A DNA stretch of 64,000 nucleotides from a virus (IMGVR_UViG_3300040751_002893:25684-89683), one strand, 5' to 3'; numbered from the stretch's first letter, positions 26,332 through 45,381 are shown. The notes: a model not told the origin generated them from the letters alone. Translations and numbers: made by a program.

Positions 26332-26463
26332 GAGTTATGAAAAGTTTTTTTGGCACGCTTTTTGCAATAGAATCATTTTGAGTTATGACAAATAAAATTG
26401 GCACGGATCTTGCAAGGGATATATTTTGAGTTATGAAAAGTTTTTTTGGCACACTTCTTGCAA
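26332..26463 (+). promoter_or_regulatory. Three tandem sigma54 (-24/-12) consensus sites, 48-bp period
   Basis: TGGCACGCTTTTTGCA (26351), TGGCACGGATCTTGCA (26399) and TGGCACACTTCTTGCA (26447), each preceded by GAGTTATG. Confidence 0.8.
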
Positions 26464-26473
26464 GGCCGATTTT

Positions 26474-26492
26474 GAGAATGAGAATCAATATC
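26474..26492. promoter_or_regulatory. Fur-box-like site
   Basis: GAGAATGAGAATCAATATC matches GATAATGATAATCATTATC at 16/19. Confidence 0.55.
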
Positions 26493-26579
26493 AATAGGAT
26501 CTCCGGACAAAAAATGACCGCAAGGAGTTTTATCTCCCTACGGGAGCGACCTTTATTCAAGGCGCACGCAAGGCCGTTT

Positions 26580-26957
26580 TTAGAGCATGCGACGCATGGT
26601 CATTTCGACACTCTCAAAGCCTTTGAGCTTGAATGTGGTGTAGGTTGGATCATGCTGGATGATGGTGTAACCATCTTGATCTGTGAAGATTGCAAAGTCA
26701 TCCTCCGCGCTCAAGTGTGCCTCATTCTGTGCTACCTGTTGCTCACGTGTGAGGTTATTGTATTCCATACACAAGGCCATGAGCCGCTGGTGCTGGAAGT
26801 CGCTCACTGGGAGAGCCATATACACCTTTACGAAGTGCGCATTGGAGATAATGTTCTTATGGCCAATGAGAGAAGAGTCGAGAGTATAGAGAAAATCAGT
26901 AGTTGGGAGAGTAGAGTATTTCATAGTAGTCTCGTTGTTAGTGTTAGATGTAGTCAT
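26580..26957 (-). CDS. Hypothetical early-region protein
   Basis: Likely start MTTSNT after an AGGA RBS. Confidence 0.55.
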   Translation of the reverse strand: MTTSNTNNETTMKYSTLPTTDFLYTLDSSLIGHKNIISNAHFVKVYMALPVSDFQHQRLMALCMEYNNLTREQQVAQNEAHLSAEDDFAIFTDQDGYTIIQHDPTYTTFKLKGFESVEMTMRRML

Positions 26958-27027
26958 GTGTATATCCTGTGGAGGGGTGTAGGGTAGGGGGGTAGTAGTG
27001 TAGTATGTAGGGTGGTAGGCTAGTGGG

Positions 27028-27453
27028 CTACTTGTCGCTGGGGTGATCCATACGACCTGTGCTTGCATAGCCCCAGTTGTATCCGGTGTTTCCATCCGGT
27101 GCATAGCCATGCTCTCGGATACGCTTGTTGTCGGTGATCTCAATGCTTCGCACAATGAGGTTCCCATAGGGATCTTTTGCATAGCCTGTATTGAACTGCG
27201 CCATGAGCATGTTGAACTGGGCTGGGGTAAGCTCAATCTCTACGGAGGAAGCGTTCTTAAGGCAGATGGTGAGTGTGAGGTCACTCTTCTGAGAACGCAT
27301 TACATTGATGTTGTACTCCATGAGTACGGTATCGACTTGCTCTTGGGTGAGGCCATAAGTCTCTTGGACTTCTTCGATAGCGTTGGTTGCAAAGTCACCT
27401 CGGTTGATGAGCTTGGTGAGGAGGTTGAGAGAGTTAAAAATGATTGTGGACAT
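27028..27453 (-). CDS. Hypothetical early-region protein
   Basis: Likely start MSTIIF after GGAG. Confidence 0.55.
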   Translation of the reverse strand: MSTIIFNSLNLLTKLINRGDFATNAIEEVQETYGLTQEQVDTVLMEYNINVMRSQKSDLTLTICLKNASSVEIELTPAQFNMLMAQFNTGYAKDPYGNLIVRSIEITDNKRIREHGYAPDGNTGYNWGYASTGRMDHPSDK

Positions 27454-27599
27454 AGTGTCTCCGAATAAAGGTTTTAGGGGGTTTGGACTTCGGAATGATT
27501 CAGCAGTCTTGAAACTCATTATCTCATTCGTTTTCGTCATATATATAATATAAGCTGTTTTGTTGGTCTTGTCAAATGTGGTGGACAGTTTTTGTCCTA

Positions 27600-27911
27600 C
27601 TAGTGTTCTAAGGGGAATCTGTGGAGGTTTTGATACATGGTTCGGATCTCTCGTATCTGAGCTTTGTCAAGGCCATAGTAGTAAGCCTGAGTCAAGAGAG
27701 AACCATAGAAAGTATCGTCACCATAGTGAAGATCTTCTACAATGTTGTCAAAAGCTTCGATTGTAGCAGTCTCATAGAGGTCTTGCATACACTCCTTGTT
27801 GAAACAGTGCATACAAACTACCTTATCGTCATTGTTTCGGAAGTGTCCAATGTCATCCTCCGGAATGAAGGTAGAGCAATCTGAGCAGTGAATGAAAATA
27901 TTGTGAGCCAT
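27600..27911 (-). CDS. Hypothetical protein with CxxC..CxxC
   Basis: CSDC...CMHC; GGAGG RBS. Confidence 0.6.
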   Translation of the reverse strand: MAHNIFIHCSDCSTFIPEDDIGHFRNNDDKVVCMHCFNKECMQDLYETATIEAFDNIVEDLHYGDDTFYGSLLTQAYYYGLDKAQIREIRTMYQNLHRFPLEH

Positions 27912-28052
27912 GAGGCCTCCAAAAGAATGTTGTTGTCGGTCGTTGCCGATACTTATAGCTTATAGCATTGGAACGATTTTGTCAAATGTGGTGGTCAAAA
28001 TATGTCCGGTCTGGCTCTGAGCGTAGCTCAAACGGAGGTTGGGGTCGGATTT

Positions 28053-28413
28053 GAGTTATGTATATTTTTTTTGGCACACTTCTTGCAAACACGAAAAAAG
28101 TCTTGACACGTTTTTATCTCGCTCTGGGAGCAACCTAAACTCACGCTATCTGTATGGCCGTTTTTGGAGCTTTGAAAAGTCTTGACGCAAAGCTCATTTG
28201 AGTTATGGTAAGAAGTTTTGGCACACCTTTTGCAAGGGATCAAAATGAGAATGAGAATCAAAATCAAAAAGGATTGGGCGCATACGCAAAAAAGCTCTTA
28301 AAAAGAGCTTGGAAAAAATAGGCGATAATCGGAAAGTTTACGGAGTAAAAGGCGTTTTACATGTGGGAGCACTAGTTAGGTATAGGTGCGTGTGTTTTGG
28401 CATGGTTCTTGCT
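28053..28413 (+). promoter_or_regulatory. Second sigma54-site module with Fur-box-like site
   Basis: Sites at 28072, 28219 and 28398; GAGAATGAGAATCAAAATC (15/19 to the Fur box) at 28247-28265. Confidence 0.75.
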
Positions 28414-28514
28414 CTGATACGTCCACATATAAGGCACATTTTCAATACATCCATAACGCACATCCAACAAACATTTTCATAAAGTTTATTTCCTCCACCT
28501 TCTAGCCCATTCGT

Positions 28515-28739
28515 TTACTTGCGTTTGGGCTTTTTTGCACATAGCTTTCCACACGCTCTAGCGGGCTTGGGATTGGCTAGCTGACTATGCACAAGCTGAC
28601 GTTCTCTCATATCCATGAGGACACCAACAAGCTCAAGAGCTTCCAATAGCGTCATATCGCCTACGGCTTTATCAAGTCCGTTATCAATGATTGTGAGGGT
28701 TCTATCTATCAATGTGTCTAGTGTGTTCTGTGTATTCAT
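28515..28739 (-). CDS. Hypothetical protein
   Basis: ORF with AGGA RBS. Confidence 0.5.
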   Translation of the reverse strand: MNTQNTLDTLIDRTLTIIDNGLDKAVGDMTLLEALELVGVLMDMRERQLVHSQLANPKPARACGKLCAKKPKRK

Positions 28740-28762
28740 AGGAAGTTCCTTGGTTTTCGGTT

Positions 28763-28792
28763 GGGGGTAGGGTAGTAGGGTAGTAGGTTAGG
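28763..28792. repeat. 30-bp G-rich repeat, identical copy at 32201-32230
   Basis: GGGGGTAGGGTAGTAGGGTAGTAGGTTAGG; variants at about 26971-27027 and 45914-45952. Confidence 0.85.
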
Positions 28793-28802
28793 GGATAGGA
28801 TA

Positions 28803-28991
28803 CTAGCATGTGAAGTCAATCAGTTCCATGTCAAGATCAAACTCGTTCTGATAGTGATCGAACATATCTTGGTCTATTACTTCGTAACACTCATCTTCCT
28901 TGTTATGGATAAAGAAAGCAACGTAGTTGTAAGATACAGTGTCAAAGTAAAGAGCAGCGTTCTTATAAAAAGAGAAAGTTTTATTTTTCAT
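28803..28991 (-). CDS. Hypothetical acidic protein
   Basis: GGAG RBS. Confidence 0.55.
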   Translation of the reverse strand: MKNKTFSFYKNAALYFDTVSYNYVAFFIHNKEDECYEVIDQDMFDHYQNEFDLDMELIDFTC

Positions 28992-29078
28992 GTGTTCTCC
29001 GATTGTTCAGTTTGATGGTGAGATATGAGAAGGTGATAGATACGGTTAGTTGTATGAGGGTTAGCGTCAATAGAGGGT

Positions 29079-29366
29079 TCATTTCAGCACCTGCTTGCAG
29101 ATTAGAGGGATAGCGTATTCTTCATACGCATGTAGCATTTCTTGGAGGTTGCGATACGCTTGTCTCTTGCGTTGGATCTCTACAAGATCATTCACATAAG
29201 AACCATCGGGATTCTTTTGGTCTTGTAGCTCGTCAATCTCAATGTATAGGCAGTTCAAGTCTTTGTATAACTTTGAGAGGGTAGCTACTTCTGCGAAGTA
29301 TTCGTATCGGGTGTCCATAGTTCCGTTTCGGTATGCTTGTAGTGCAAGGTCAAGATAGTTTGTCAT
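29079..29366 (-). CDS. Hypothetical protein
   Basis: MTNYLD after GGAG and a promoter/palindrome unit. Confidence 0.6.
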   Translation of the reverse strand: MTNYLDLALQAYRNGTMDTRYEYFAEVATLSKLYKDLNCLYIEIDELQDQKNPDGSYVNDLVEIQRKRQAYRNLQEMLHAYEEYAIPLICKQVLK

Positions 29367-29445
29367 GTTGTCTCCAGTTGTTCGGTACATCTATAATATA
29401 ATCGGTTCTCAGCTATTGTCAAGTGTGGTGGACAAAATGTGTCCG

Positions 29446-29826
29446 TTAGTCCAGTTCCAGTTCGCATTGGTCATTGAGTTCATCACGTACAGTCTCGTAA
29501 CACTCATGGATGACTTCCCATCCTTGGACATAAACCCACATGTTGCAGACAGCCTCTGGAGAGGATAGGTCTGTGTGGACTTCTCCGAAGTTGTGTTGCT
29601 CATACTCTTGAACGTCACCGATCATATCGAAAGCAGAATCGCCCATCCATTGCTTAGCTTGGTAGTGACCAATGATGTAATAGTCTCGGTTAAAGATTTG
29701 GTCATGCAAGTCTGAAACATAAGCGTCTCGGAAGTCTTGGTTGTCCATGTATTCTGCGATCTCACGAAGTCGGTCAAGGCAAAAGTCTTTGATTTCTTTT
29801 TGGTTTTGTTGGTAAGTGAATGACAT
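29446..29826 (-). CDS. Acidic early protein, possibly Ocr-like
   Basis: D/E-rich, DLHDQIF; has its own promoter. Confidence 0.55.
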   Translation of the reverse strand: MSFTYQQNQKEIKDFCLDRLREIAEYMDNQDFRDAYVSDLHDQIFNRDYYIIGHYQAKQWMGDSAFDMIGDVQEYEQHNFGEVHTDLSSPEAVCNMWVYVQGWEVIHECYETVRDELNDQCELELD

Positions 29827-29901
29827 ATTGTCTCCGTTGGTTGGGTTATATTAGTAATGTATCTGATTGGGGTGGAAAAGTCAAGGACAGAAAATGTCCG
29901 T

Positions 29902-30063
29902 TTACACTGGTGTGGCTCTGAAGTCTTTTGCATTGCGTGGTGCTTTCTTGCGTGCCTTGCTGATAGCATCCTGTTTGGATGTGGCTTGCACTCGGATGAA
30001 TCCGTACTGCGCTCCAAAGTTTGCGCCTGTTGTATTGTATGTGTAGTCTACGAAATAAGTCAT
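29902..30063 (-). CDS. Hypothetical small protein
   Basis: MTYFVDY after GGAG. Confidence 0.55.
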   Translation of the reverse strand: MTYFVDYTYNTTGANFGAQYGFIRVQATSKQDAISKARKKAPRNAKDFRATPV

Positions 30064-30077
30064 GTTGTTCTCCGTTG

Positions 30078-30329
30078 TTAGCATGAATATGGTTGGTTGT
30101 TGTCTTGTTGTTTTCGTGGTGTGCAGTGACCGTTCTCTATAAGAGCGTCTGCTGTTCTATGGAACCATCCTTGTAGCTGATAGGCCATCCCAGTGTCGAT
30201 AAGCACTTGCCAAGCTTGGATGTATTGCTCTTGGCTCTCGGCTTGATAGACACCCTCAGCGATCATGATTGCATCAAAGGTGGGCATTTCTTCTTCAAAG
30301 GGTAGTTCAAGTTGTATCATTTTAGACAT
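30078..30329 (-). CDS. Hypothetical phage protein
   Basis: WQVLIDTGMAYQLQGWFHRTA; GGAG RBS. Confidence 0.6.
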   Translation of the reverse strand: MSKMIQLELPFEEEMPTFDAIMIAEGVYQAESQEQYIQAWQVLIDTGMAYQLQGWFHRTADALIENGHCTPRKQQDNNQPYSC

Positions 30330-30574
30330 ATTGTCTCCGTTGTTTGGGTTCTAGTTATTTGGTTTGAGTTGTACCATATCGGCTTTAACAAAAGGTTTCC
30401 ATCTGGTCGAATAACCTGCTACATTTGCTGTTCTTTTAGAACGTTTGTACCATCTGACACCTTCAAAATAGAAGTATGATCGTACTGGGATTTGACTGAA
30501 TGAAATATGTTTGTTGGTCATAGTGACTCCGTTGGTTGGTGATGTTTATAATGTATCTCGTTTGGTTGGAAAAG

Positions 30575-30781
30575 TCAAGGACACTTTTTGTCCTTTTCTA
30601 TAAAGTCCACAAGGTCAACGTCAACCTTGACAATGCGTGAACCTGTTTCGCAGTTAGGGAAATGCACAGTCAGTTCTGTGCTAGGGTAAAGCCACCCTGT
30701 GGATCTATAGTCCGTAACTACGCCTATTCCAAAGAACTTGTGCTGTTTTGTTTTTTTACGCTTTACTAGTTTACCAATCAT
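30575..30781 (-). CDS. SH3/KOW-like miniprotein
   Basis: MIGKLV..GIGVV; ends KKCP inside the palindrome. Confidence 0.6.
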   Translation of the reverse strand: MIGKLVKRKKTKQHKFFGIGVVTDYRSTGWLYPSTELTVHFPNCETGSRIVKVDVDLVDFIEKDKKCP

Positions 30782-30833
30782 TTTAACTCCGTTGTTGGTT
30801 GGTGATGTTTATAATGTATCTCGTTTGGTTGGT

Positions 30834-30989
30834 TTAGTCAAGGACATTTTTTGACCGTTTGTCTATTTTCCCTCTGCAAGCCATCTTGTTGGCCTGTTTT
30901 TTCTTGTCTCCATGAGATCCTGAGCCTGAGCCTTGACGTTTGATATGCTCAAGATGTGTGAGATTGCGAGGTTGTAACTTCTTTTTCAT
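30834..30989 (-). CDS. 51-aa basic peptide
   Basis: Manual translation: MKKKLQPRNLTHLEHIKRQGSGSGSHGDKKKQANKMACRG... Confidence 0.5.
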   Translation of the reverse strand: MKKKLQPRNLTHLEHIKRQGSGSGSHGDKKKQANKMACRGKIDKRSKNVLD

Positions 30990-31186
30990 GGTTCTTCCTA
31001 GTTTAAGTCGGTTGGATCAAAACAAGCTTTGATAAGCTCCATGAGAGCCTGTTCTGCTATCTCTCGGAGTTGTGGTGGGGTTCCATCTATATTCAAGGCT
31101 TGCAAAGCAAGATTGATGGATACAAAGGTTTCGTGGTCTTTTCCATCAAAGATGGAGGATAAAGGCATTTTGTTCATGGTTGTCTC

Positions 31187-31444
31187 CTATTGAAGAGGTT
31201 CTATTGTGTTGCTTATGTCGTTTAGGGTGTCGATAGACAAACCAGTAACGAATTCATATTCAGTACAGGTTCGGTAGCCACCCATACCGTTTGGGGTTTG
31301 TCTTGTGGTATGGGAAAGATAGACTACTGGCTTGCCATTTACGAGGATTAGATCGCCTTTCGTAAGGCTTTCAGCCCACATGTTCTTACCATGGTTTGGA
31401 TAGTGTTTGTGGAAGTTCTTTGCGAAGTTAAGCATGGTTCTCAT
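31187..31444 (-). CDS. Hypothetical protein
   Basis: GGAG RBS and its own promoter. Confidence 0.55.
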   Translation of the reverse strand: MRTMLNFAKNFHKHYPNHGKNMWAESLTKGDLILVNGKPVVYLSHTTRQTPNGMGGYRTCTEYEFVTGLSIDTLNDISNTIEPLQ

Positions 31445-31569
31445 TTTGTCTCCGTTTCAGTTGGTGATGTTAGTAATGTAACCCATTGAGAAAAAAAGTC
31501 AAATCGGGAGGACAGAATATGTCCGGCAAGGGTTCGTTCCCTTTAGGGAACGGATTGAGGAACTGGTTT

Positions 31570-31605
31570 GAGTTACGTAAACTTTTTTTGGCATAGATAT
31601 TGCAA
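31570..31605 (+). promoter_or_regulatory. sigma54 consensus site
   Basis: GAGTTACG-N11-TGGCATAGATATTGCA (31589). Confidence 0.65.
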
Positions 31606-31646
31606 GGGGTGTCTCTACTCTGAAACTGCCCCTCGCGCTATCTCAT

Positions 31647-31895
31647 TCACCGTTTGACTTTGATATGGTAGCTTGAACCTCGTTTATTGACATAGAGTGT
31701 CTCAATACCGTCCACATGCTCGTCACGTGCGATCGCATCAAGTAGGTGTTGCACGTCAAACTGTGTAACAGTTTCCTCGCTTATGACGTTCGCTACGAAG
31801 TCATGAAGATCTCCATCCCAATCACCCCAAAGGTTCTCTATGAAGTCAAGAGCCTCTTTCACTGCCTTGATGGTGACTGTTGTTTTATCCTTCAT
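31647..31895 (-). CDS. Hypothetical acidic protein
   Basis: Start MKDKTT after GGAGG. Confidence 0.55.
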   Translation of the reverse strand: MKDKTTVTIKAVKEALDFIENLWGDWDGDLHDFVANVISEETVTQFDVQHLLDAIARDEHVDGIETLYVNKRGSSYHIKVKR

Positions 31896-32015
31896 TTTTG
31901 CCTCCGTAGTGAAAGGTGTCGTACTTGGTTGTGCGCTTGATCTCCTTTGGAGACAGGACACGCACTTGTGTTCCCTTACGTGTGGTGATAATCACCTTGT
32001 CCATTGTGTATTTAC

Positions 32016-32569
32016 TCATGTATCCTCCTGTGGTTGTGTGAGTTGTGTGTAGTAGAAGCGCAGACTGCTCTCGCTTATGTGAGCAAAGCAATCGGGAGCG
32101 TCAATGTATCTGAGTGTGTAGAATCCATCTTTGACCGCAGTGCATACGCATATGCCGCTCTCGCTCTTCCATAGTGTGCCGACCATAGTTTCTCCTTGGT
32201 GGGGGTAGGGTAGTAGGGTAGTAGGTTAGGCTATCTTGGTCATGGATCTCTCTACGAAGAAATCACGAAGTGTCACATGACCTAGACTGGGTGTTGTAAA
32301 CACATAGTACAACGCCCCACCTGTTGTATAGTATTTGTCTTTGAGAATGTATATCTTGCCTTTTCGACATTTCCATAGTGTACCAATCATTCTTCTTCCG
32401 TTGGTGTTAAGGGTTCAAAGTATCTATCCAGTTCTCGTAGTCCTTTGACTACCCATGTGTCTCCGTTTGTTATACAAACCATGGTGAAGTAGGGTATGTG
32501 TGCATAGTCTATGCTTATGCAAGCGTATATGTGCTTACTGTGTCTTGATCTATACAACATCCCTATCAT
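32016..32569 (-). CDS. Three tandem miniproteins M(V/I)GxL(W/Y): 32016-32186, 32226-32390, 32387-32569
   Basis: Manual translations MVGTLWKSES.., MIGTLWKCRK.. and MIGMLYRSRH.. Confidence 0.6.
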
Positions 32570-32577
32570 GTTATCAC

Positions 32578-33816
32578 CTAGTCTATCGCTATGACACGTT
32601 CATTAGTTGTGAAGTAAGGGTTCTCCTTGCCTCGTTGGTCAGTCATCCACATGCGTTGGCACTTGCTGGCTATCGGCTTTGGAGCCTCCATATCTGTGAG
32701 GATGATGTGACCATCGAAACCGTTCTCATTGACGTATCGTGTCGGAGCGTCAAAGCATGTGCCGCCACACTTGACACGTTCCCATGTCTTGCGTTCACCT
32801 TTCTTCCAAGTGTAGACAAGACTCTCGTCCACTTCAGTATCAAAAGGCACAACGGTAAACTCTGCAAGGCTTGATAGGCTATTGAGTTCTGCGAAGAATG
32901 AGGCAAGCATTTCATCCGATACAGAACCAGACTGGTCAATGCTGATAGCAATCTTGGCTTGACGTGTAACCTTGCGACCGGCATGAATGTATGGAAACCT
33001 ACGGTTAAGTCTACGAACAGTCGAACGCTTATTGCTACGCTGTGAAGTCTTGATGAAGTATCTCAGAACCTTGCGCCAGTCAATCTTGGGAGTGATAGCA
33101 TCCATGATCTGCTTACGAACGTCTGCCGATACAGATCCCCAGCCTTGACCGCTTGAAGCATCCTTGGCGGCTTTCTCCATAGCATCTTTCAAACGCTCTT
33201 TGGCCATAGCCTTTGTCTCTTCGTCAACGTCACCCCAACCGCTATGGTCGTCAAGAACGTGGTCACCAAGAGAAGAGCCTTGGCCTTGGCCTTGTGATGG
33301 ATCGCCTTGGCCTTGACCGCCTTGACCGTCACCTTGGCCTTGACCATCGTCTTTCTTGAACTGCTCATCTTCTTCAATAATCTTAAGATAAGCCTCAGCA
33401 GATAAACCGACAGGATAGTCTGCGAAAGGTGTATCGGCTTTGCCGGGTATACAGCCACCATCGGGCAACATGTCAGCAATATGACTGTTGATTGCAAGGT
33501 CTGTCGCAACGTTCCACTTCATAGACATACCCTCAGCCGGAAGTCGTGTGGTGACATGCTCAAAGATGATGTGGTAAAACTCGTGCATTAGAACACCAAG
33601 CTTTTGCTTGTCTGTAAGGCTAGCCATGAACTCTGGATTGTAAAGCATCTCAAACTGTGCTGACTGTGGATTGATACGGACACCAGCAGTTGGAATGTGC
33701 TTGGATGGTGCTTTGTGAATACGTCTTGAAAGACTTGCGAAGAACGGTTCTTGTTGTAGCAAACGGAAAGTGTGCATGTTCAAGTCAAACTTTTCTGTTG
33801 TTTCGTTATCACTCAT
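32578..33816 (-). CDS. Metallopeptidase-VWA protein (DUF2201-like)
   Basis: LMHEFYH, WNVATDLAIN, a Q/G linker, IDQSGS, GGGT-like CGGT and ILTD. Confidence 0.85.
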   Translation of the reverse strand: MSDNETTEKFDLNMHTFRLLQQEPFFASLSRRIHKAPSKHIPTAGVRINPQSAQFEMLYNPEFMASLTDKQKLGVLMHEFYHIIFEHVTTRLPAEGMSMKWNVATDLAINSHIADMLPDGGCIPGKADTPFADYPVGLSAEAYLKIIEEDEQFKKDDGQGQGDGQGGQGQGDPSQGQGQGSSLGDHVLDDHSGWGDVDEETKAMAKERLKDAMEKAAKDASSGQGWGSVSADVRKQIMDAITPKIDWRKVLRYFIKTSQRSNKRSTVRRLNRRFPYIHAGRKVTRQAKIAISIDQSGSVSDEMLASFFAELNSLSSLAEFTVVPFDTEVDESLVYTWKKGERKTWERVKCGGTCFDAPTRYVNENGFDGHIILTDMEAPKPIASKCQRMWMTDQRGKENPYFTTNERVIAID

Positions 33817-34072
33817 TGGAATCTCCTTGTTGGGGTGATATAGATAACTTATCCGATTGGGATGGTTTTGTCAAACGTGGTGGACAAAAACTGTCCGGTA
33901 GTTTAGAAAGCTCTATTCTGTCTAGGTTGGTGTGCGCTTCCTCTATCTTTTGAGCTAGGGATTTGACTTCCAAAGGCTCCGACAGTTCTTCAAGCTCTGG
34001 TGGAAACTCAATCTTTTGTCTTTGTATTGCGTAATACGTTATATTGCTGTATTGTAGCTTTGGTCTACTCAT
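33809..34072 (-). CDS. Hypothetical protein
   Basis: GGAGG RBS; the 3' end contains a promoter/palindrome unit. Confidence 0.45.
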   Translation of the reverse strand: MSRPKLQYSNITYYAIQRQKIEFPPELEELSEPLEVKSLAQKIEEAHTNLDRIELSKLPDSFCPPRLTKPSQSDKLSISPQQGDSNE

Positions 34073-34289
34073 TGGTTCCTCCTGTCTTGAAACCCATAGG
34101 TGCTTTCTTCTTGGGCTTTTCTGCCTTGGGAAGTGCTTGTGGTGGCATAGCCATACCCATAAGGGCTTGCAAGGGTATTCCCATAGAGTTGCCTTGTGGT
34201 TGCATAGCCATGATTAGCTTGGATAATAGCTCGTCTGATATGTTCAGTGTAATATTAATCTCGTTATTGCTCATTGGTTTCTCCTGCAT
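34065..34289 (-). CDS. Hypothetical protein
   Basis: Overlapping-gene chain; start probably MSNNEI. Confidence 0.5.
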   Translation of the reverse strand: MQEKPMSNNEINITLNISDELLSKLIMAMQPQGNSMGIPLQALMGMAMPPQALPKAEKPKKKAPMGFKTGGTNE

Positions 34290-34617
34290 TGTCTACAATG
34301 CTTTTAAGTAGTTGTTGCTTGTGGGTTGGTAGTAAGGACTTTTGGTGGTTTAGGGTTTCCACGTCGGGCATTAGGAACAAAGACCAGTCTTTGAGAGTCT
34401 TGGATAGTTGCCTTGCCTGTTTCAATGTGATGTTGTGTCTGATGGAATAGCCTGTGGACATGTGTGATAATGTCCATGACTTTTCATCCTCTTTACGATG
34501 GACATAGAAAGGGAAGTCATTTCCGTAGGAACCATCACAATATGTCCAAACTGGATGATTATCTTCAAATGTTCGTATCTTGAATGTACCTTTGCGTATT
34601 CTCATAGGTGTCTCCAT
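34264..34617 (-). CDS. Hypothetical protein
   Basis: 117-aa ORF in an operon. Confidence 0.55.
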   Translation of the reverse strand: METPMRIRKGTFKIRTFEDNHPVWTYCDGSYGNDFPFYVHRKEDEKSWTLSHMSTGYSIRHNITLKQARQLSKTLKDWSLFLMPDVETLNHQKSLLPTHKQQLLKSIVDNAGETNEQ

Positions 34618-36808: not shown

Positions 36809-37725
36809 GCGTTAATGTGGACTACAAGGTTTGCAGGTCGCCAATCGGACTTCATACCGTTTTGTAATTGCTCATAGGTTCTCTTCTTGACAAGAGTTCC
36901 AAAGGATTCTTTGTAGGAAGTAATCCACTCTTGGGGTAGGGGAGTAGGGGAGTTGGTGATTACAGACACCAATGAACAAGCTGGTGCACCATTCCAAAAG
37001 GAATGTATTCTACCGTTCTCTCCGACAGTGTTAAACTTCGCATGAAGATTATCAAGTCGTCTTGTCTCTCCATCTACCAACACACAAACTTCTATCGGAG
37101 AATGAGCGTCATTATGGTTCTTGCTCATACCAGAGAATACATTTACAGTATTCCAGTTTATCTTGGTGATGATACCAGTGCTTTTTACTGTTTCTCTATT
37201 GTTCCAGCTACCCTTTTCATAAGTGACTTGAACACAAGCACCAACAGATAGACCACCATCCAGTACAAGGTCTTTGTAGGCCGCGTGTCGCCAGTTCTCA
37301 TTGGCTTTGTAACAGTCTTTGAGAAACTGTTCCATGGTCGGACAAGTGCGTCTTGTATGGTCTTTGCCACCACAAAAGCCACATGTTCTATTGACTGCCT
37401 TGCGTTTGACTTTGTGTTCAAAGTTGAATCCACGTTCTTTCTGAACCTTGTATGCTTTGCGACAGTTACGGAACCATGCCGCAAGAGCATTGTTGGCTAC
37501 ATCATCAATAAGAGGATCAAAAGCCGCAGTGTGCCATGTAGCATAGTTGTAGCCACGTCTGATAAGATTACCATCTTTGTCTTTGGGAATCTCCAGTCTT
37601 GATAAGAAGTTCTCCCAATCACCTTTGACGTGTGGGCATTGGTATTGGTTGTGTCCTGTTTCTCGGCAATAGCCACATGTTGCTTTACTTCTGTTTGATG
37701 TGTTCTTATTTTCATGAATATTCAT
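36799..37725 (-). CDS. Protein with two CCHC zinc knuckles
   Basis: CGYCRETGHNQYQC and CGFCGGKDHTRRTC (CX2CX4HX4C); start MNIHEN. Confidence 0.7.
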   Translation of the reverse strand: MNIHENKNTSNRSKATCGYCRETGHNQYQCPHVKGDWENFLSRLEIPKDKDGNLIRRGYNYATWHTAAFDPLIDDVANNALAAWFRNCRKAYKVQKERGFNFEHKVKRKAVNRTCGFCGGKDHTRRTCPTMEQFLKDCYKANENWRHAAYKDLVLDGGLSVGACVQVTYEKGSWNNRETVKSTGIITKINWNTVNVFSGMSKNHNDAHSPIEVCVLVDGETRRLDNLHAKFNTVGENGRIHSFWNGAPACSLVSVITNSPTPLPQEWITSYKESFGTLVKKRTYEQLQNGMKSDWRPANLVVHINAWK

Positions 37726-37818
37726 GTTGTCTCCAATGAAATGTTGTTGATTGTTCGTTGTGAACATATTATTAACTTATTGTGTTTGGTTGAAAAAGTC
37801 AAGGACAGAAAATGTCCT

Positions 37819-38118
37819 TTATGGTTTAAGTGTGTGTTCAGACATGTCTATCTCCATTTCTATGCTCCAAAGAAGTTCTTGGCATTTGTCGAACATAGTT
37901 TCCAGTTCTTTTATTTTGAGCGTGTGTTCTGGGTTGTAGAGGGTTTCAAGGTTCTTTTCTGCCCATGTTAAATCCTCATCATTTTGATCAAAAACACCTA
38001 AGAGAAGCTCCAAGCTCTCAGAGCAAGCCACTTGCAAAGCACCTTTTCGTGTCATGTGGATACTGACTGCTTCTCTACCATCCCATGGTCTTGTTATTGT
38101 AACTTCGTATACGTTCAT
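37819..38118 (-). CDS. Hypothetical protein
   Basis: Likely start MNVYEV after GAGGTG. Confidence 0.5.
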   Translation of the reverse strand: MNVYEVTITRPWDGREAVSIHMTRKGALQVACSESLELLLGVFDQNDEDLTWAEKNLETLYNPEHTLKIKELETMFDKCQELLWSIEMEIDMSEHTLKP

Positions 38119-38287
38119 TGTTTCACCTCTTTGAGTTCTGTTGGGTTGTAATGATGTGTTTTGCCTGTTTTCAAGTTTGTTCCAGTGATATACACTCCAT
38201 GTGTATACCCTGTTATCACCACTAAATCTCCAAGCTGTGATGGAAAATGACTTGCTATTGCAACCACTTCGCATAGTGTTCCTATCT

Positions 38288-38923
38288 TCATACTCTTTCC
38301 TCTCCAGTGAGTTGTTTGATTGGTAGTAGATCCTTTTCGGGAATGAAGTCATACATGCCTATACAAGTTCCAGTCAAGTATACGACCATAATGTGGCTCT
38401 TTCCATAGCGACCAAACTTCTTGATATAACCAAGTTCATTGAGTCCACGCTCATTATACACTCTTACTAAATCACCTATTTGCATGCTATCACCTCCAGT
38501 TGGTATCCATTGATACCATAAACTTCTCCACTAGCCCAGTGAATGAGCCACCTATCTGCGACACCTATCTGTCGAATGACGATACCAATGTCTCCAAAAG
38601 GGTTTTCTACTACACTACCTGTTTTCATTTTATCTCCGTTGTTCGGTGTGATGTTTATAATGTATCCGATTGAGGCAAAAAAGTCAAGGACAAAAAGTGT
38701 CCGGCTTTGATTGTTGAGGTTTTAACTTCTTTATCTCGTATCTTTTGAACCAAACTCTCTTGTTGTGTACGCTTCTACCCTCGCAAAACCACTGTATCCC
38801 AAAGTCATAGTACCCTTTGGCCGGATAAACCTCCAATATGATACCAAAACCCTCGTAATACCTGTGGTTGTGCTTTAACTTCGCACCTTTGGCCGATAAC
38901 ACAACAAGATCGCCTATTTTCAT
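38288..38923 (-). CDS. Three MKxGDLV-family miniproteins: 38288-38485, 38476-38628, 38684-38923
   Basis: MQIGDLVRV; MKTGSVVE..GIV..LEVI (manual); MKIGDLVVL. Confidence 0.7.
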
Positions 38924-39168
38924 TCTCTATGTCTCTCCAAGATGTGCTTGATGAATCCATCTGGACACCAAACATGCACTACCCTCCAACCCTCAAACGG
39001 TGTTGGGATGGTCTTGCACACCTCTGCGCCTGTCTCTGTACGCTCCACATACACACACAGGTATGAGCCACTATCGTCACCCTCCTGCTTGACTATGAAC
39101 GCACTGTCAGTATGGTCAGGCATTATTTTCATAAGGTTTTGTATTGCTTGTTCTCTTTCTGTTTTCAT
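38920..39168 (-). CDS. Hypothetical protein
   Basis: AGGAG RBS. Confidence 0.55.
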   Translation of the reverse strand: MKTEREQAIQNLMKIMPDHTDSAFIVKQEGDDSGSYLCVYVERTETGAEVCKTIPTPFEGWRVVHVWCPDGFIKHILERHRE

Positions 39169-39182
39169 GGTTGTCTCCTTTG

Positions 39183-40103
39183 TTAAATAGTTTTTCCTAA
39201 TAGTTCTCGCATCTTGAATAGACCAAGCTCTTTGTGCTTACATTCAAGCATCACATCCACATCATGTCCGTATGTATCCACTGGTAGCCAGTACGAATCT
39301 GAGTGTGCATGTGCCTTGATGGACGTGTCATCATACTCTGTGGCGCGGGACTGGGAGTAGTGCACCACCGGGGTAGTATCCCCCCACGTAGACACCGCAA
39401 GGGCAAGGGCATCGGGGTTGGATAGGCCACCAGTGCAGAACGTGTGGTGGTGTAGGTCATGCACGATAGGTATACCAGTACGCTTGTAGACTTCCATAAG
39501 GTCTAGGGTAGAGTAGAGGGAGGCACGATCATCATTCTCCACAGTCAAGCGAGAACGCACTGCATCTGATAGCCTGTCCACGTTGCGACAGAAGTTGTCG
39601 ATAGCTTTGGGCTTGTCACCATAGGAAGCACCGACATGTATATTGAGCTTTGCATAGTGAGTACGAGGGAGGCATAGCAAGTCAAATAGCTCGCCATGGA
39701 TCTCCAAGTCTCGGATAGAGTTGCGAACAACATCTTCGTTGGGCGAGGCAAGTTTGACGAAGTGATCGGGATGTGATGTGACACGCATACCATGCTCTTC
39801 GATGAATAGACCACACTCAAAGAGAACCTCTTCGATCTGATCGTAGTCCGGTAAGTCAGTGAGTTGATACTCGGTAGCCCACGATACAATCTGCGAGGAC
39901 AGACGGAAGAACTTGATGTTGTGTTGCTCGTTCCATTGGAGTATCTTAAGCAAGTCTTTACTGTTCTGCAAGAAGATAGCAGAGGCATGGGGCAAACCTT
40001 TCTCTTCAAAGGTAGCCTTGCGAAATGTGCGATTGGTTGTGATACGGTTTTTGATGGACTGCTCCGAAAGTCCTTTGTTGATACATGCGTAACCTAGTTT
40101 CAT
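39183..40103 (-). CDS. uvsE: UV-damage endonuclease
   Basis: LGYACIN, FFRLSS, HPDHF, NIHVG, LTVENDD, DLHHH, HAHSD and MLECKHKE. Confidence 0.92.
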   Translation of the reverse strand: MKLGYACINKGLSEQSIKNRITTNRTFRKATFEEKGLPHASAIFLQNSKDLLKILQWNEQHNIKFFRLSSQIVSWATEYQLTDLPDYDQIEEVLFECGLFIEEHGMRVTSHPDHFVKLASPNEDVVRNSIRDLEIHGELFDLLCLPRTHYAKLNIHVGASYGDKPKAIDNFCRNVDRLSDAVRSRLTVENDDRASLYSTLDLMEVYKRTGIPIVHDLHHHTFCTGGLSNPDALALAVSTWGDTTPVVHYSQSRATEYDDTSIKAHAHSDSYWLPVDTYGHDVDVMLECKHKELGLFKMRELLGKTI

Positions 40104-40155
40104 GTTGTCTCCTGTTGTTGAATACCTATATAATATAACCTATTGTCTCAGAAAG

Positions 40156-41095
40156 TCAAGGACATTTTTTGACCATGATTTCTTTTCTTACCCAAGAGCG
40201 TTCTCCGTCCATCCAGAACACCTCATACTCAAAGGTATCCATCGCCACAATAATACCCCAACACCAAGAGTTGATGTGGTGTTCTGCTAAATCACCTATT
40301 TTCATCTAGCACCTCTTTTCTTGACCATGGATCGCTTTGAGATCCATGAGCGATCACCATCATTCCAAAATATCTCATACTCATGAGTATTGACTGCTAC
40401 AATAATCCCCCAAAGACGAGATACAGAATAATGTTCTGCTAAATCACCTACTTTCATTGATCGCTCCTATTACAACGAACACGCTGGTAAACTGGTCGTC
40501 AGCCACCGGATCTGCTTTCAAGATCCATTTAACCTTTGTATATCCGTCTTTGCCCACTCTCTTGACGATACCTATGTTTCGCCACATGCGCCATTTCTCC
40601 GTTACTAAATCACCTTTCTTCATGCTAGCACCTTAAGTTGTTCTCTCGCCACACCTATCTCGTATGTGGTGTTTGGGATCTTCACTGCGTAGCTATCGAC
40701 AAATCCGGGTCGTCTGCAAACGTATATAACAATCCCAATCTTTCCACTGTACTTACCAAAGCCTTGTATCTGTACTAAACTTCCTACTTTTATTTTCATG
40801 GTGTCTCCTACTGTTTAATCTCTTTCCACTGTCGGCCATGCCCATCTTCATCTTGAACCCAGCCAAACACTTTTTCCACCTCTTTGTGTATCACCTCTAA
40901 ACATCCAGTGCCCAAAGAGTTACGACCACCAGTGTGAACGTTTAATAGGTCTGCTACGAAGCCATATGCGTCTACAAAACCCCTTACACGAAGAACCTTA
41001 TAGAATCCTAGTATTTCCTCTCCATACTTATGAATAACCAAGTCGCCTGTCTTAAAACCAGACAAATATTCTTTTCCTTTACTTCCGAAACTCAT
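40156..41095 (-). CDS. Five MKxGDL-family miniproteins: 40156-40305, 40302-40457, 40444-40623, 40620-40799, 40808-41095
   Basis: Manual translations: MKIGDLAEHH, MKVGDLAEHY, MKKGDLVTEK, MKIKVGSLVQIQGFGKYSGKIGIV (KOW-like) and ..FKTGDLVIH. Confidence 0.75.
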
Positions 41096-41311
41096 ATTTC
41101 CTCCTATATAGCCAGTTGGCCTTTGTAAAAGAACACGTTCTTGTGCCCTTGTCTCTCTAAACTATCTGCAAACCGTAAAGCTTGATACATAGTCATTGGT
41201 TTACTCTCATGCAGTTTATCACTGCTCACATAATAACATTTCTCTATTGTATCTAACATGTTGTCTCCTGTTGTTGAATACCTATATAATATAACTGATT
41301 GACCGAAATAG

Positions 41312-41833
41312 TCAAGGACATTTTTTGTCCTCTAATAAAAGCTTCCTCAGATGATCTTTATCCTCTTTTACTCGTTGCTCCATCTTACCTTTCAAGTCAA
41401 GCATCGCTTTCTTTATTGTATGATTATTCTCACCTTGTTTTATTGCAGAAACTATTTTGTTTGGTAGCTCTGCATAAGTGCATCTGTACTTCTTAAACTT
41501 CTTGCTCTTTGTTTCTCCAAGACCGACACATACAAAGGGGTTCGGTGTGTGTTGTCCTTGTTTCTCTAAGGCTATTTTAACTATATCATCCGGTGGTATC
41601 ACAATCCATATATCTTCTTTTGGATCATATCCCACACCTACTAGATACTTATACGGTCTAGTTTGGTTCCACGTTTTCTTTTTTGATTCTCCATAATACT
41701 CTGTATTCCCAATCGTAACTATGAAATCTCCTTTTGCTTTCCCTTTCGCTGACTTGTCTCCATTATCATCTATGAAAGGGCTTGAAGCTATTATCTTTTC
41801 CTCTGTTGTTTTGCCGCTATTTGTTATTCCCAT
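41312..41833 (-). CDS. Putative PD-(D/E)XK-fold nuclease
   Basis: G..TEEK..GDFIV..YGESK pattern; start MGITNS after AGGAG. Confidence 0.4.
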   Translation of the reverse strand: MGITNSGKTTEEKIIASSPFIDDNGDKSAKGKAKGDFIVTIGNTEYYGESKKKTWNQTRPYKYLVGVGYDPKEDIWIVIPPDDIVKIALEKQGQHTPNPFVCVGLGETKSKKFKKYRCTYAELPNKIVSAIKQGENNHTIKKAMLDLKGKMEQRVKEDKDHLRKLLLEDKKCP

Positions 41834-41852
41834 TTTACATCTCCTGTTGTCT

Positions 41853-42401
41853 CTATTCAATGTAACCGTTCTCTGCCTGTTCGTCAAGCAGAAACATATA
41901 TTCTTTCAGTTGTAAAGTTTCATACTTACTTTTCAGCCATTTCACTTTACACTTTGTCTTGTCAAGATCCTCGGTGACTATACCAAAGCCGATCTTGTCA
42001 AATACTTTTTTGTCTTTATGCCTTGCCAGTATCTTCTTCATGTTTCACCTCCCTTAATAATGTTATGTATGGGGTTGACCATAGGCCACCTTTCATTCTC
42101 GGATCTGTATCTTTCTCGAGTTGAGCAAAATAATGTACTATGTAGTATCCTGTGTCGCATATTTTTGTGATACATCCTATTGCAGTGAACCCTTTGTTGG
42201 ACACCTTTACTAAATCACCTATCTTCATCTTATCACCTCTAATCTATCTTCTTTCCATAATAATGTCTTTCCATCTATGAACACAAGCCATACGGTGTCT
42301 GTGCCTGTTGCTTTGCGCCTTAATACACCTATTTTGCCTAGGTATTTCTGGTGTTCCCAAGAATAGACACTGTTTATCCTAACTAAATCACCTATCTTCA
42401 T
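41853..42401 (-). CDS. Three SH3/KOW-like miniproteins: 41853-42041, 42016-42228, 42225-42401
   Basis: MKKILARHK..GFGIV; MKIGDLVKV; MKIGDLVRI..GKIGV..LEVIR (manual). Confidence 0.7.
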
Positions 42402-42741
42402 TGATCATTCTCCTAACCCATTCGTTACCATGCTCTTTCGCATACTCTGCAACATAGTCACTCTTGAACGTGAGCATTTTCTCATTCTTGATAACTACGT
42501 TTTCAAGCTGATAGCCAGCGATAAGGAATGTTTCATCCACATTTACTGATGGATCGAATGAGAGAATCACACGACACACTGCGAAAGGCATAGACTTTTG
42601 TTTCTTAACCATTTTGCCTGTCTTTGAGTCTTTGTATGGTTTTGCCCAATACTTTCTAAATGCAATCTTGTCTATGACTGCTGTTATTGCTTTGCCACCA
42701 TTGGCGAAGAACACATTCATTTTTGGTTTGATATAAGCCAT
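42388..42741 (-). CDS. Hypothetical protein
   Basis: GGAGG RBS and its own promoter. Confidence 0.6.
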   Translation of the reverse strand: MAYIKPKMNVFFANGGKAITAVIDKIAFRKYWAKPYKDSKTGKMVKKQKSMPFAVCRVILSFDPSVNVDETFLIAGYQLENVVIKNEKMLTFKSDYVAEYAKEHGNEWVRRMINEDR

Positions 42742-42793
42742 GCTTACCTCCGTTGTTGTTTACCTATATAATATAACTGATTGTCCGAAATAG

Positions 42794-43306
42794 TCAAGGA
42801 CATTTTTTGACCGGTGTTAAGATTGAAACGCTATGTGCATCAACAACCCCATTGTGTGCCCACCTAACTCTAACAACAGTGTCATAAGGACTTACCCATT
42901 CCACTATTCCTATCCAGTTCTTACCGTACTTGAACACTCTCATTACTAAATCACCTACTTTCATACTTCCACCTTTTGCACATATGTTTTTCTAACCTGT
43001 ATTATCTGTCCATCTGCTGGACAATACACGCGTATCCAGCCAGTCCATAAGCCTATTCCCATGTAAATCATAGGTGTCTTATCTAAATCTTTACTGACTG
43101 GTACAACGACATCACCTTTCTTCATCTAACACCTCCAAGGAATAAAAAGGAACCCACAGTGTCTTGTGTCCTACTTGTACTTTGTATTGCCCAAACTGAT
43201 TGATTGGGGCTAGAACTATACCTATGTATCCATGAACATCACCATGGATGGACATACCTTTGTTGTATCTGAATAGATCGCCTTTCTTAAAATCACTTCT
43301 TTGCAT
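42794..43306 (-). CDS. Three MKxGDL-family miniproteins: 42794-42964, 42961-43125, 43112-43306
   Basis: MKVGDLVMRV..KKCP; MKKGDVVVPV; MQRSDFKKGDLF..LEVL. Confidence 0.7.
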
Positions 43307-44036
43307 CTTTCACCGCCTTTGTTCTACACTTCTTAAGGAACTTCTCCACAACAATATACACTTTTGTGTCTCCGATAGGAAGAACACGATACAAGCGTGA
43401 ACCACCTTGTTTCTCTTTGTGAGAATAAGTACTGGCATAGGTCTTACCACCCAACGGTGGACTTTCGCCCAACACCATCATGGTCTTTTTACTAAGTTTC
43501 TGGATTGTATGAGGGTTGGCTCCATAGTAGTTTGTTCCACCGCTATGCTTATGTTCTTGAAGAACTGCATCTACACCGATGTTGGAACGGAACTGCACAA
43601 TCGCACCAATATCAAAGATTGGATCTTTCACATAACTCTCAAAGACATTGAAGTTCTCTTTGCGAAACATGCTTATGAAGAAAGCCATAATCTCTTGTGT
43701 AAGCTTGCCAGTTGCATGCAAGTCCTTTATCTCATCGACACGAGTATTGTACCATCTTTTGCGATCTTCCATCATATCCATGACATGGTTCATCTTCTTC
43801 TCCGAAGATAAAAACTTCTTTGCCAAAGACTTGTTGCGAAGATAGTCTTGACCAAAGGATGACCATAGCCACATAGCTTTCCATTGTGCGTTGGAGTATT
43901 CTTCTTTTTGGTACTCATACTCAAACAGGTATGTATTATACCATGCTCTATTGTTTTCCGACATCCATTCTTTTTCTTCTTCTGTGAGCTTGTTTATTCT
44001 TCCTAATAGGATCTCTTTTGTCTTTTCTATATTCAT
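43293..44036 (-). CDS. Hypothetical protein
   Basis: Start MNIEKT; leader nearly identical to that of 36799-37725. Confidence 0.65.
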   Translation of the reverse strand: MNIEKTKEILLGRINKLTEEEKEWMSENNRAWYNTYLFEYEYQKEEYSNAQWKAMWLWSSFGQDYLRNKSLAKKFLSSEKKMNHVMDMMEDRKRWYNTRVDEIKDLHATGKLTQEIMAFFISMFRKENFNVFESYVKDPIFDIGAIVQFRSNIGVDAVLQEHKHSGGTNYYGANPHTIQKLSKKTMMVLGESPPLGGKTYASTYSHKEKQGGSRLYRVLPIGDTKVYIVVEKFLKKCRTKAVKDAKK

Positions 44037-44109
44037 TTTGTCTCCAATGAAATGTTGTTGGTTGTTCGTTGTGAACATATTATTATCTTATTGTGTTGTG
44101 TCTATTTTG

Positions 44110-44944
44110 TCAAGGACATTTTTTGACCGATACGGATCTACTATCGTGCAAAAGGCTTATTCGATCCCAACAGTCTGTAAAGCCTGTATCTATTATAGAG
44201 ATTTGTATCGCGGCACTATCATTATCAATGTGTGTTATAACAAACATTCTATTCTTGTAATACCATCCAACATCTGCGTTGAATACTCTTAAATCACCTA
44301 CTTTCATACTAACACCTCCAGTTTTTCCTTGGCAAGACGAGGGTACCAACTACTATTTGAGCCGATAATGTAAACATCTGCGCTCCATGTTCCGTTGTTC
44401 ATAACAACACCTAGTTTGCCCAAGTATCTTTTATCTTCTGTTTCTTTAATCTTTACTAATGTTCCTACTTTCATTTTATCACCTCCAATGAACGAGCTAA
44501 ATCAAAACATATTCTATCGTATTTCAAAGAATATAGTTTTACGAACGCACTATCATTATATGGGTGCAGTGCTTCCATAACAATGTATAGCCCATGATGT
44601 TCGTTGTTTCTTATTTGCACCAACGTACCTTTATTCATAATTTCTCCACTCCATCTAAATCGCACCACAACCAATCCGATACTTCTTTCTTATTTTGAAA
44701 ATAAGCTCTGAACTGGCTATACCTACCTTTGTGTCTTATCTCTAAGACAATACCTATACCAATATAAGGCATCTTTATTAAATCACCTACTTTCATTTAT
44801 CACCTCTAAGTAATGTAAAAGAAAGCTTTCTGTATGACCACCTATAAACACATGGTAGCGAAAGTTTCCTCTGCGTGTTATTTCTCTGCGTAACACTATT
44901 CCTATTTCATTTGTATATTTGCAACGCACTAGTTTGCCTATCAT
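44110..44944 (-). CDS. Five MKxGDL-family miniproteins: 44110-44307, 44304-44474, 44471-44638, 44635-44796, 44783-44944
   Basis: MKVGDLRV, MKVGTLVKI..LEVLV, MNKGTLVQI..LEVIK, MKVGDLIKM and MIGKLVRC..LEVI. Confidence 0.75.
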
Positions 44945-45141
44945 AATGTCTCCATGTTTCATGATTACCTATATAATATAACATGTTGGTCGGAGTTGTA
45001 AAGGTCATTTTTTGTCCGTTTGTTAAAAAAGTTTATAAAGTTTGACAAATTATATGAAGTTTGTTAAAATTTTATGTAACTTCTTGATGAAGTTGAGAGA
45101 ACCGGCTATTGGCGGCTTACAGCGCAGATTCGGATGATTCT

Positions 45142-45348
45142 GTTATGTAAATAAAAATTGGCACAGTTCTTGCAAGGTCATTTTAACAAATTTGTTATAT
45201 TTTGTGAAAGTTACATAAAAATGACTCAAAGTTATGTAAATATTTTTTGGCACGATTCTTGCAATAGCGAAAAAGTGGCCTTGCAGACTATTTATTGTAG
45301 GTTTTGTGTTCTGAGTTATGTAAATCATTTTTGGCACAGTTCTTGCAA
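45142..45348 (+). promoter_or_regulatory. Third sigma54-site module (three sites)
   Basis: TGGCACAGTTCTTGCA (45159), TGGCACGATTCTTGCA (45248) and TGGCACAGTTCTTGCA (45332), each with GTTATG 17 nt upstream. Confidence 0.8.
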
Positions 45349-45381
45349 GGCGAAGTTTTTTAAGAAAGTTACATAAAATGC

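Follow-up and report, generated by a model that had tools for sequence, protein, structure and literature searches.

The DNA analyzed here, referred to below as the window, is a stretch of 64,000 nucleotides corresponding to bases 25684-89683 of the 89,683-bp IMG/VR virus contig IMGVR_UViG_3300040751_002893, which is rated 49% complete. Almost all open reading frames (ORFs) of at least 150 amino acids lie on the minus strand, where the genes bear sigma-70-type promoters and Shine-Dalgarno sequences, and the recognized products include a DnaE-type polymerase, GroEL, PhoH, UvdE, an amidase, and a ClpP-like protease. In the gaps between the early transcription units lie ten sites that match the -24/-12 promoter consensus of sigma-54 (RpoN), and every one of them is on the plus strand. 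The phage has no close cultured relative: a near-identity search of 26000-32000 among cultured phages gave no match, and the best tblastn identities to cultured phages were 27-32% for DnaE, about 44% for GroEL, and 27-32% for a structural protein. Its DNA has been found in estuary, seawater, plankton, and mollusc metagenomes (14 studies in all), and Fur-like boxes, the sigma-70 consensus, and the use of Shine-Dalgarno sequences suggest that the host is a proteobacterium of estuaries and the coastal sea.

The pattern TGGCAYR-N4-TTGCW occurs ten times in the window, whereas 0.06 matches were expected from 100 shuffles, none of which reached ten sites. No further site is found in the remaining 25.7 kb, giving ten forward and no reverse matches for the whole contig, and the reversed pattern, run on the contig as a control, matched neither strand. 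When up to two mismatches were allowed there was no surplus over chance (19 found vs. 16.2 expected). In all ten sites, GG and GC stand ten bases apart within TGGCAC-N5-TTGCW, which is an exact fit to the sigma-54 consensus. Nine of the ten are copies of a single 36-bp composite in which a box, AGTTAYGTAAA, is followed by seven A/T-rich bases (with hardly any C and little G) and then by TTGGCAC-N5-TTGCAAG; GTTAYG begins 17 nt upstream of the site in each of these nine. The first three composites (26333-26368, with the box AGTTATG.. joined to TGGCACGCTTTTTGCA; 26381-26416; and 26429-26464) form a tandem array that Tandem Repeats Finder (TRF) places at 26329-26465, with a period of 48 and 2.9 copies. 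They are followed by composites 4 (28054-28089) and 5 (28201-28236), by the single composite 6 (31571-31606), which faces the 3' end of a conserved minus-strand gene at 31647-31961, and by composites 7, 8, and 9 (45141-45176, 45230-45265, and 45314-45349), the first of which opens a cluster in a boundary region at 45.0-45.45 kb, an approximately 400-bp gene-free stretch dense with repeats. The exception is the tenth site, TGGCATGGTTCTTGCT at 28398-28413. Because it is boxless, shows two mismatches against the strict core, and has no counterpart at the homologous stretch of the related contig G001, it is probably degenerate or a chance match. All ten sites had been listed in the first-pass annotation, along with the exact 48-bp period, the GTTAYG upstream of nine of them, and the RpoN consensus, and all of these observations were reproduced.

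The sites fall outside conserved ORFs without exception. Their minus-strand neighbors are intact in G001 (no stops, 58-87% identity, with one at 30%), while the overlapping plus-strand ORFs contain one to five stops there and one of them is not found at all. Consequently, there is no credible plus-strand gene, and the sites belong to the gene-less strand. A palindrome, GGWCA-N5-TGWCC, occurs 28 times in the contig (window 25225-45017), nearly always within 25.2-45.0 kb and ahead of most early sigma-70 promoters; the island that it marks spans 25225-45003, and clusters of sites are located at both of its ends. Both the non-coding placement and the clustering at the island ends had been proposed on first inspection and hold.

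The same composite recurs in related phage contigs. Among 22 IMG/VR stretches matching the composite pattern, 15 are phages with the AT-rich unit, usually in groups of two to five, and the other seven are single look-alikes within genes. In G001 (141 kb, 78% complete, DnaE 94% identical), 12 boxed sites all lie opposite the genes and in the order seen in the window. Homologues of the genes at 26.6 and 28.4 kb adjoin its arrays, three sites spaced by 88 and 85 bp correspond to those at 45159-45332, and a single site faces the homologue of gene 31647-31961, a pairing seen at 31589 in the window and again in G003. G002 (DnaE 80% identical), G003, and G004 have three, seven, and three sites, respectively, each set on one strand. 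In the window and in all 15 family loci, the strand that does not carry the sites has the higher ORF content. Across the window and 14 family loci, 52 of 54 distinct core sites have the box at a constant distance; these 54 were chosen by TGGCAY-N5-TTGCW, which fixes the core GG and GC by construction, and the box is independent of that choice. The letters of the box are invariant or nearly so, and the T directly before TGGCA, which is outside the search pattern, is invariant (52/52). The N positions are variable, conservation ends right after TTGCAAG, and the flanks are unconserved. At the level of sequence comparison, this pattern demonstrates that the sites are under selection.

The palindromic operators of these phages behave differently, as they vary by clade. 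The window phage uses GGACA-N5-TGTCC; G002, G003, and three further loci (L018, L023, and L027) have CTAC-N6-GTAG; and G001 has A-rich repeats in place of the operators of the window phage. The composite is constant across clades whose operators differ, as would be expected of a unit read by a conserved host machine. In these more distant relatives, the CTAC-N6-GTAG element takes the place of the operator; it lies upstream of early promoters and just after the plus-strand sigma-70 promoter of the boundary cluster, with copies in L036 (reverse; about 4036, 4386, and 4413), L018 (350 and 557), L023 (943), L027 (5227), and L035 (2450 and 2472). No such sites occur in the sister clade, whose DnaE is 61% identical and which includes a 151-kb contig; within 40 kb of its member G006, the region by GroEL is densely coding with no analogous array. 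A separate feature of G006 is a set of nine genes by GroEL (L059 2809-8750) whose 5' ends have a conserved 46-nt stretch in common, which amounts to an N-terminal leader shared by all nine. Among 185,579 bacterial species genomes, the composite gave seven single matches that read like coding DNA, their frames being unchecked; with GC-rich spacers, no TAAA, and flanks lacking an AT-rich context, they are probably chance. As these coding-like single matches are all that the bacterial genomes contain, the box half is, on this comparison, an invention of the phages and not a feature of a host regulon.

Several elements that resemble parts of regulated promoters are found beside the composites. One is the palindrome located exactly 79 bp before the site in three modules, namely those at 27993-28007 (before site 28072), at 31510-31524 (before site 31589), and one in G001. 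The first two had been noticed in the first-pass annotation, and the recurrence of the distance in G001 extends that observation. With the T of TGGCA at about -26, this spacing puts the palindrome near -105, an enhancer-like position. The three 79-bp spacers themselves are no more alike than shuffled sequence. In both G001 and G003, the palindrome has been lost from the early promoters and exactly one copy has been kept (G001:C1:104469-104483 and G003:C1:14044-14058), which precedes the leftmost array by 79 or 125 bp; G002 has none. The window contains two additional adjacent palindromes, GGACA-N5-TG(A/T)CC, at 26281-26310, between a minus-strand sigma-70 promoter (26273-26245) and the 48-bp array.

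At the other end of some modules there is a Fur-like box, so labeled by its score against the 19-bp Fur consensus. Four boxes scoring at least 15/19 occur in 229 kb of family DNA, and three of them lie 11-12 nt after a -12 element. Each of the three follows the last unit of an array and covers the predicted start point: 26474-26492 in the window (16/19, 11 nt after the -12 of composite 3), 28247-28265 (15/19, 12 nt after the -12 of composite 5), and one in G001. By sequence, then, candidate Fur boxes of 15-17/19 coincide with the predicted start point in three modules, and a population variant from run X10 at 26474-26492 is nearer to the Fur consensus. On the gene-strand side, terminator-like hairpins precede the sites directly in two of the four gaps, one ending gene 26580-26957 (minus strand) at 26518-26543, immediately ahead of the array when read along the gene strand, and the other at 28292-28310, beside a Fur-like box. 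The sites there occupy the space between the terminator of one early unit and the promoter of the next.

The boundary cluster has promoters of its own. A sigma-70-type promoter on the strand of the sites (45042-45070, 11/12, with TG) is joined by a consensus sigma-70 promoter (45382-45410, plus strand, 12/12, with TG) that lies 35 nt after composite 9, is kept in relatives, and is aimed at the 3' end of a conserved gene at 45432-45626 (minus strand). Transcription against the genes is thus built in at 45 kb independently of sigma-54. Cores of the box, TTAYRTAA, also occur there without a sigma-54 site (plus strand, 45072, 45211, 45369, and 45432, within 45072-45440). As these lone cores adjoin the two sigma-70 promoters, a separate regulator probably binds the box.

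Other ways of accounting for the composite itself were considered and set aside. As a sigma-70 promoter it fails on either strand, since inspection by eye shows the hexamers 20-22 nt apart or finds no -10 element, and a sigma-70 promoter scan gave just 9-10/12 matches, at three of the sites. A coding role is contradicted by the ATG of the box, which is directly followed by TAA in most copies, and an RNA hairpin by the lack of self-complementarity. The stretch TGTAAA-N6-TTGGCA within the composite presumably resembles a TyrR/PhhR box, and there is no helical phasing between units (resultant 0.21). In population contigs from run X10, composite units are joined to one another at 26329>26378, 26367>28200, and 28187>26445, which should be read with caution as these contigs are at 90% likeness; within window 26329-28284, one variant omits 48 bp, one omits 1832 bp, and one steps back 1743 bp. 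Because these contigs join one unit to another, recombination seems to occur at the units, altering copy number and rearranging the gene cassette that lies between them.

The genes around the sites offer few clues to their function. PHROGs and Pfam searches of the ten ORFs adjoining sites returned no family, and the ESM Atlas gave no usable match for the gene facing site 31589. Among 68 ORFs of the island, Pfam recognized only glutaredoxin, cupin/mannose-6-P isomerase, and domains of unknown function (DUFs); no DNA-binding or transcription family, no rep or par family, and no MotA- or AsiA-like protein was recognized. A MoxR/CbbQ-like AAA+ ATPase and a VWA/DUF2201 metallopeptidase-like protein are encoded about 860 bp apart in the early island (32578-35741, minus strand), with small ORFs between them. 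The AAA+ gene (34680-35741) was considered as a sigma-54 activator and rejected, since it scores 15.1 bits for Sigma54_activat against a cut-off of 20.2, its translation lacks GAFTGA, and the best solved relatives of its product are midasin and CbbQ/NorQ. Two small features of the minus strand are of separate interest: a 12-codon mini-ORF behind GGAGG at 28442-28480 (MKMFVGCALWMY), whose length and C-terminus are kept in G001 (MKVLFCGVLWMY), and a TTGACA-17-TATATT promoter at 27538-27575 with an ATG 6 nt past the -10 hexamer, from which gene 27028-27540 may be transcribed as a leaderless mRNA. The region 24000-36000 has a guanine-plus-cytosine (GC) content of 0.42-0.46 and a positive skew, compared to 0.35-0.41 and a negative skew in the rest of the window, and the gene strand is unchanged.

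The sigma-54 half of the composite is not confined to this family. A scan of IMG/VR for two TGGCAC-N5-TTGC elements 25-55 nt apart found tandem sigma-54-type sites in at least 120 stretches, compared to three for the reversed control. Among the matches listed, 118 loci fall into 65 families at the DNA level with GC contents from 0.27 to 0.68, a few of them being repeats inside genes; periods run from 24 bp up, and many arrays alternate strands. In other phages, arrays are often boxless, their periods differ, and some run in the direction of the genes. No Sigma54_activat gene was found in 48 array-bearing contigs, eight of them at least 90% complete, and no Sigma54_DBD in 49. Among 101 ORFs flanking arrays, families of the terminase large subunit are commonest (5, 4, 3, and 1 members), amounting to 12-13 terminase family matches as Terminase_6N and 6C may fall on the same proteins; the terminase gene in the family of the window phage is more than 70 kb from the arrays. 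The idea that the arrays of other phages are as a rule followed by a sigma-70 promoter was rejected (4 of 51 families vs. 2-4 at three control positions). Two cases illustrate the range. L072, an 11.8-kb (11,783-bp) contig with inverted terminal repeats that is rated 100% complete, has its units in both repeats, inward and with the genes, so that orientation differs between lineages. The small linear phage family to which it belongs (20 loci) carries two or three sigma-54-type units per terminal repeat (L072 1-320 and the other end). These units are adjoined in L072 by two TGTTTCACGTGGAACA palindromes, which resemble chromosomal parS, and the first 35 bases of L072 resemble a sequencing adapter. 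In L112, which is unrelated and of higher GC, the stretch 2480-3020 holds five sigma-54-type sites, a GAGAATCATTCTC palindrome, and three copies of a 28-bp dyad, which together with a same-strand sigma-70 promoter all run against the adjoining genes.

Comparison with known systems brings out both the familiar and the unusual parts of the module. Like bacterial RpoN promoters, of which glnAp2 and pspA are examples, the sites have the exact TGGCAC-N5-TTGCA core with invariant GG and GC, and some modules also have a palindrome farther upstream, about as distant as an enhancer would be, and an operator-like element covering the predicted start. Unlike those promoters, they are carried by a phage, arrayed, directed against genes, and lacking a product gene or a recognized activator. 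To our knowledge, no sigma-54 promoter includes an additional box at a constant position immediately upstream (about -45 to -34). Phage T4 provides a partial parallel, since it appropriates sigma through the MotA box and AsiA and also makes anti-late RNA, early transcripts that run against later genes. By analogy, promoters meant for a phage co-factor could be tagged by a phage box set at a constant spacing from a host sigma element; the difference is that T4 redirects sigma-70, not sigma-54.

The first-pass annotation knew of no described equivalent, and the literature searched agrees to the extent that no description was found of phage arrays of sigma-54 sites, antisense sigma-54 modules, decoys, or sigma-factor DNA sponges. 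Phage use of sigma-54 as such does have a published precedent, the only one found in that literature. According to the accessible portions of two later reports, the Pseudomonas phage YuA needs host sigma-54 for its development (Ceyssens et al., 2008, cited in PMC5053324 and bioRxiv 10.1101/2023.10.13.562163), and one sigma-54-like promoter region was confirmed by mapping of transcription start sites (bioRxiv 10.1101/2023.10.13.562163). YuA would thus share with the window phage the use of the host sigma-54 polymerase, but its promoter, as far as those portions go, serves YuA genes, and they mention no arrays, antisense orientation, or fused box. The intragenic and antisense sites bound by sigma-54 in Escherichia coli are a further point of comparison. 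As described in the available part of PMC4591121, they too can have no adjoining gene, are kept at the positions read by sigma-54, mostly hold inactive holoenzyme, and have been discussed in terms of antisense regulation; they differ in being single, intragenic, and 68% sense-biased, whereas the window sites are intergenic, clustered, all antisense, and coupled to a partner box.

The reading that we favor, to which we assign a probability of roughly 40%, is that the sites are genuine host sigma-54 sites that act as gated antisense or non-coding promoters. We infer that sigma-54 would bind here because of the exact core, the pattern of conservation, and the recurrence of the sites in phages of very different composition, and on these grounds a sigma-54 reader is much more likely than a private phage protein. 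Host sigma-54 RNA polymerase would sit silently at the module until an activator acts, and it would fire if the Fur-like operator over the start point were free at that time. The activator could be a host enhancer-binding ATPase, perhaps helped or replaced by a reader of the box and of the palindrome about 105 bp upstream of the start. Firing would yield a non-coding RNA against the 3' ends of early genes, and at the 45-kb boundary also against the neighboring gene block, alongside the two co-directional sigma-70 promoters. Early expression would thereby be tuned or ended by time or by the iron or nutrient state of the host. Arguments that the modules would fire are the operator-like box at the predicted start, the retention of a palindrome upstream, the co-directional sigma-70 promoters, and the published case of YuA.

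A number of observations weigh against this proposal. No sigma-54 gene was found in the family contigs, with no Sigma54_DBD in five contigs and no enhancer-binding ATPase (Sigma54_activat) above the cut-off in any of the five. Nothing is conserved downstream of the -12 element in the window and family loci, and the first putative transcript, downstream of the first array, folds no better than shuffled sequence (z -0.32). There were no Rfam matches at the gathering threshold in the window and the loci of seven relatives, and no transfer RNA or transfer-messenger RNA in the window and eight loci. The only RNA run (X20, share 0.06) comprises 86 contig pieces of relatives, mostly over coding parts and with no strand or 5'-end information, and its low cover over 27128-28455 is no evidence of silence. 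Palindromes also occur at other distances, namely 55 and 70 bp (26281/26296), 125 bp, and 156 bp (45003). The modules with Fur-like boxes are paralogues or orthologues of each other, so that the three cases may be one evolutionary event, and the common strand of the sites could likewise be mere inheritance from duplication. Units 48 bp apart would obstruct each other when firing, and most sigma-54 sites in E. coli are, by the account available from PMC4591121, bound yet inactive.

Some of these observations are better accommodated if the modules never fire. Antisense silencing and titration of sigma-54 had both been proposed in the first-pass annotation, whose interpretation is supported in part. 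It is conceivable, although somewhat unlikely, that the modules only hold the sigma-54 holoenzyme in a closed complex, which is the main rival to the favored reading. They would serve either as a sponge, so that host transcription dependent on sigma-54 falls after amplification of the phage DNA, or as an anchor for phage DNA, with a box protein locking the complex. This would fit the lack of a downstream gene and of a conserved product, the dense tandem packing (48 bp at minimum), the missing activator gene in the five family contigs and the 48 other array-bearing contigs, and the excess of tandem sites in IMG/VR over the reversed control (at least 120 vs. three). Many of the other arrays, with periods of 24-29 bp or with face-to-face pairs, cannot all fire, and the holoenzyme is inactive at most E. 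coli sites in the portion of PMC4591121 available. A sponge, however, requires neither a fixed orientation nor an operator at the start point nor a palindrome at a kept distance; nine sites per genome are few in the absence of a high copy number, this reading leaves the gain for the phage unexplained, and no natural sigma-factor DNA sponge was found in the literature searched. The wider proposal, that arrays in many phage lineages are a DNA trap that captures host sigma-54 polymerase in a silent closed complex, locked here by a box protein, is to be regarded as more doubtful still. If it were true, multiplication of the phage DNA would shut sigma-54-dependent host programs or tether host polymerase to phage DNA, and the arrays would amount to a sigma-factor sponge consisting of viral DNA, a form of host takeover not described before. 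A reader other than sigma-54 is an improbable alternative, in which the 36-bp unit would be an iteron or operator of a phage protein for origin, partition, or recombination functions and its likeness to the consensus would be fortuitous. The phage-specific box half, with its seven probably chance matches in bacterial genomes, the box cores standing alone near sigma-70 promoters, the gene-free and repeat-packed 400 bp at 45.0-45.45 kb, and the recombination between units in the run X10 population would all be in keeping with it. Yet eleven specified bases with the right spacing fit the consensus in every copy, and the variable positions are those that sigma-54 ignores. The phage-specific operators diverge between clades while the unit does not, and a universal host reader is favored by the occurrence of the half-motif in dozens of unrelated phages whose GC contents differ widely. 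Helical phasing is absent, no rep or par gene is among the 68 island ORFs, and the unit thus lacks the marks of an iteron.

The remaining alternatives are less probable and concern what bound or moving polymerase might do. In phage T7, polymerase starting at the tandem A1-A3 promoters reels the genome into the cell, and polymerases from the plus-strand promoters could by analogy do the same here; help with DNA entry had been raised in the first-pass annotation. Tandem promoter-like units and two strong sigma-70 promoters pointing in one direction would fit such an entry motor, and the arrays of other phages often flank terminase genes, suggesting genome ends. The idea has no support in this family, however, where the terminase gene is more than 70 kb from the arrays; the arrays extend across 19 kb of the genome's interior, dependence on an activator is ill-suited to the first seconds of infection, and the genome ends are not placed in a contig rated 49% complete; this role is therefore very improbable. 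A polar roadblock or insulator is also quite improbable, though less so. Here, closed complexes facing the gene-strand polymerases would reinforce terminators and isolate early units or the island boundary, in keeping with sites that face oncoming transcription at every locus and that directly follow a terminator-like hairpin of the gene strand in two of four gaps. This variant, likewise raised on first inspection, is weakened by E. coli data, in which overexpression or deletion of rpoN left genes with intragenic sigma-54 sites unchanged, as far as the available part of PMC4591121 goes. Moreover, the terminators are already there, and the box, the Fur-like box, and the palindrome would be left unexplained.

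Sigma-54 promoters are the sole class of bacterial promoters that hold polymerase silently until an ATPase fires it, and a clade of abundant estuarine and marine phages keeps such sites more strictly than its own operators. The promoter element within the module is known; the module would be categorically new if the sites never fire, and there is a real chance of this. If the modules fire, they would form a phage circuit that reads host physiology and gates the early genes through antisense transcription, and if they never do, they would be a DNA sponge for a host sigma factor. The presence of tandem sites in at least 120 IMG/VR stretches, compared to three for the control, suggests a general and undescribed strategy of phages.

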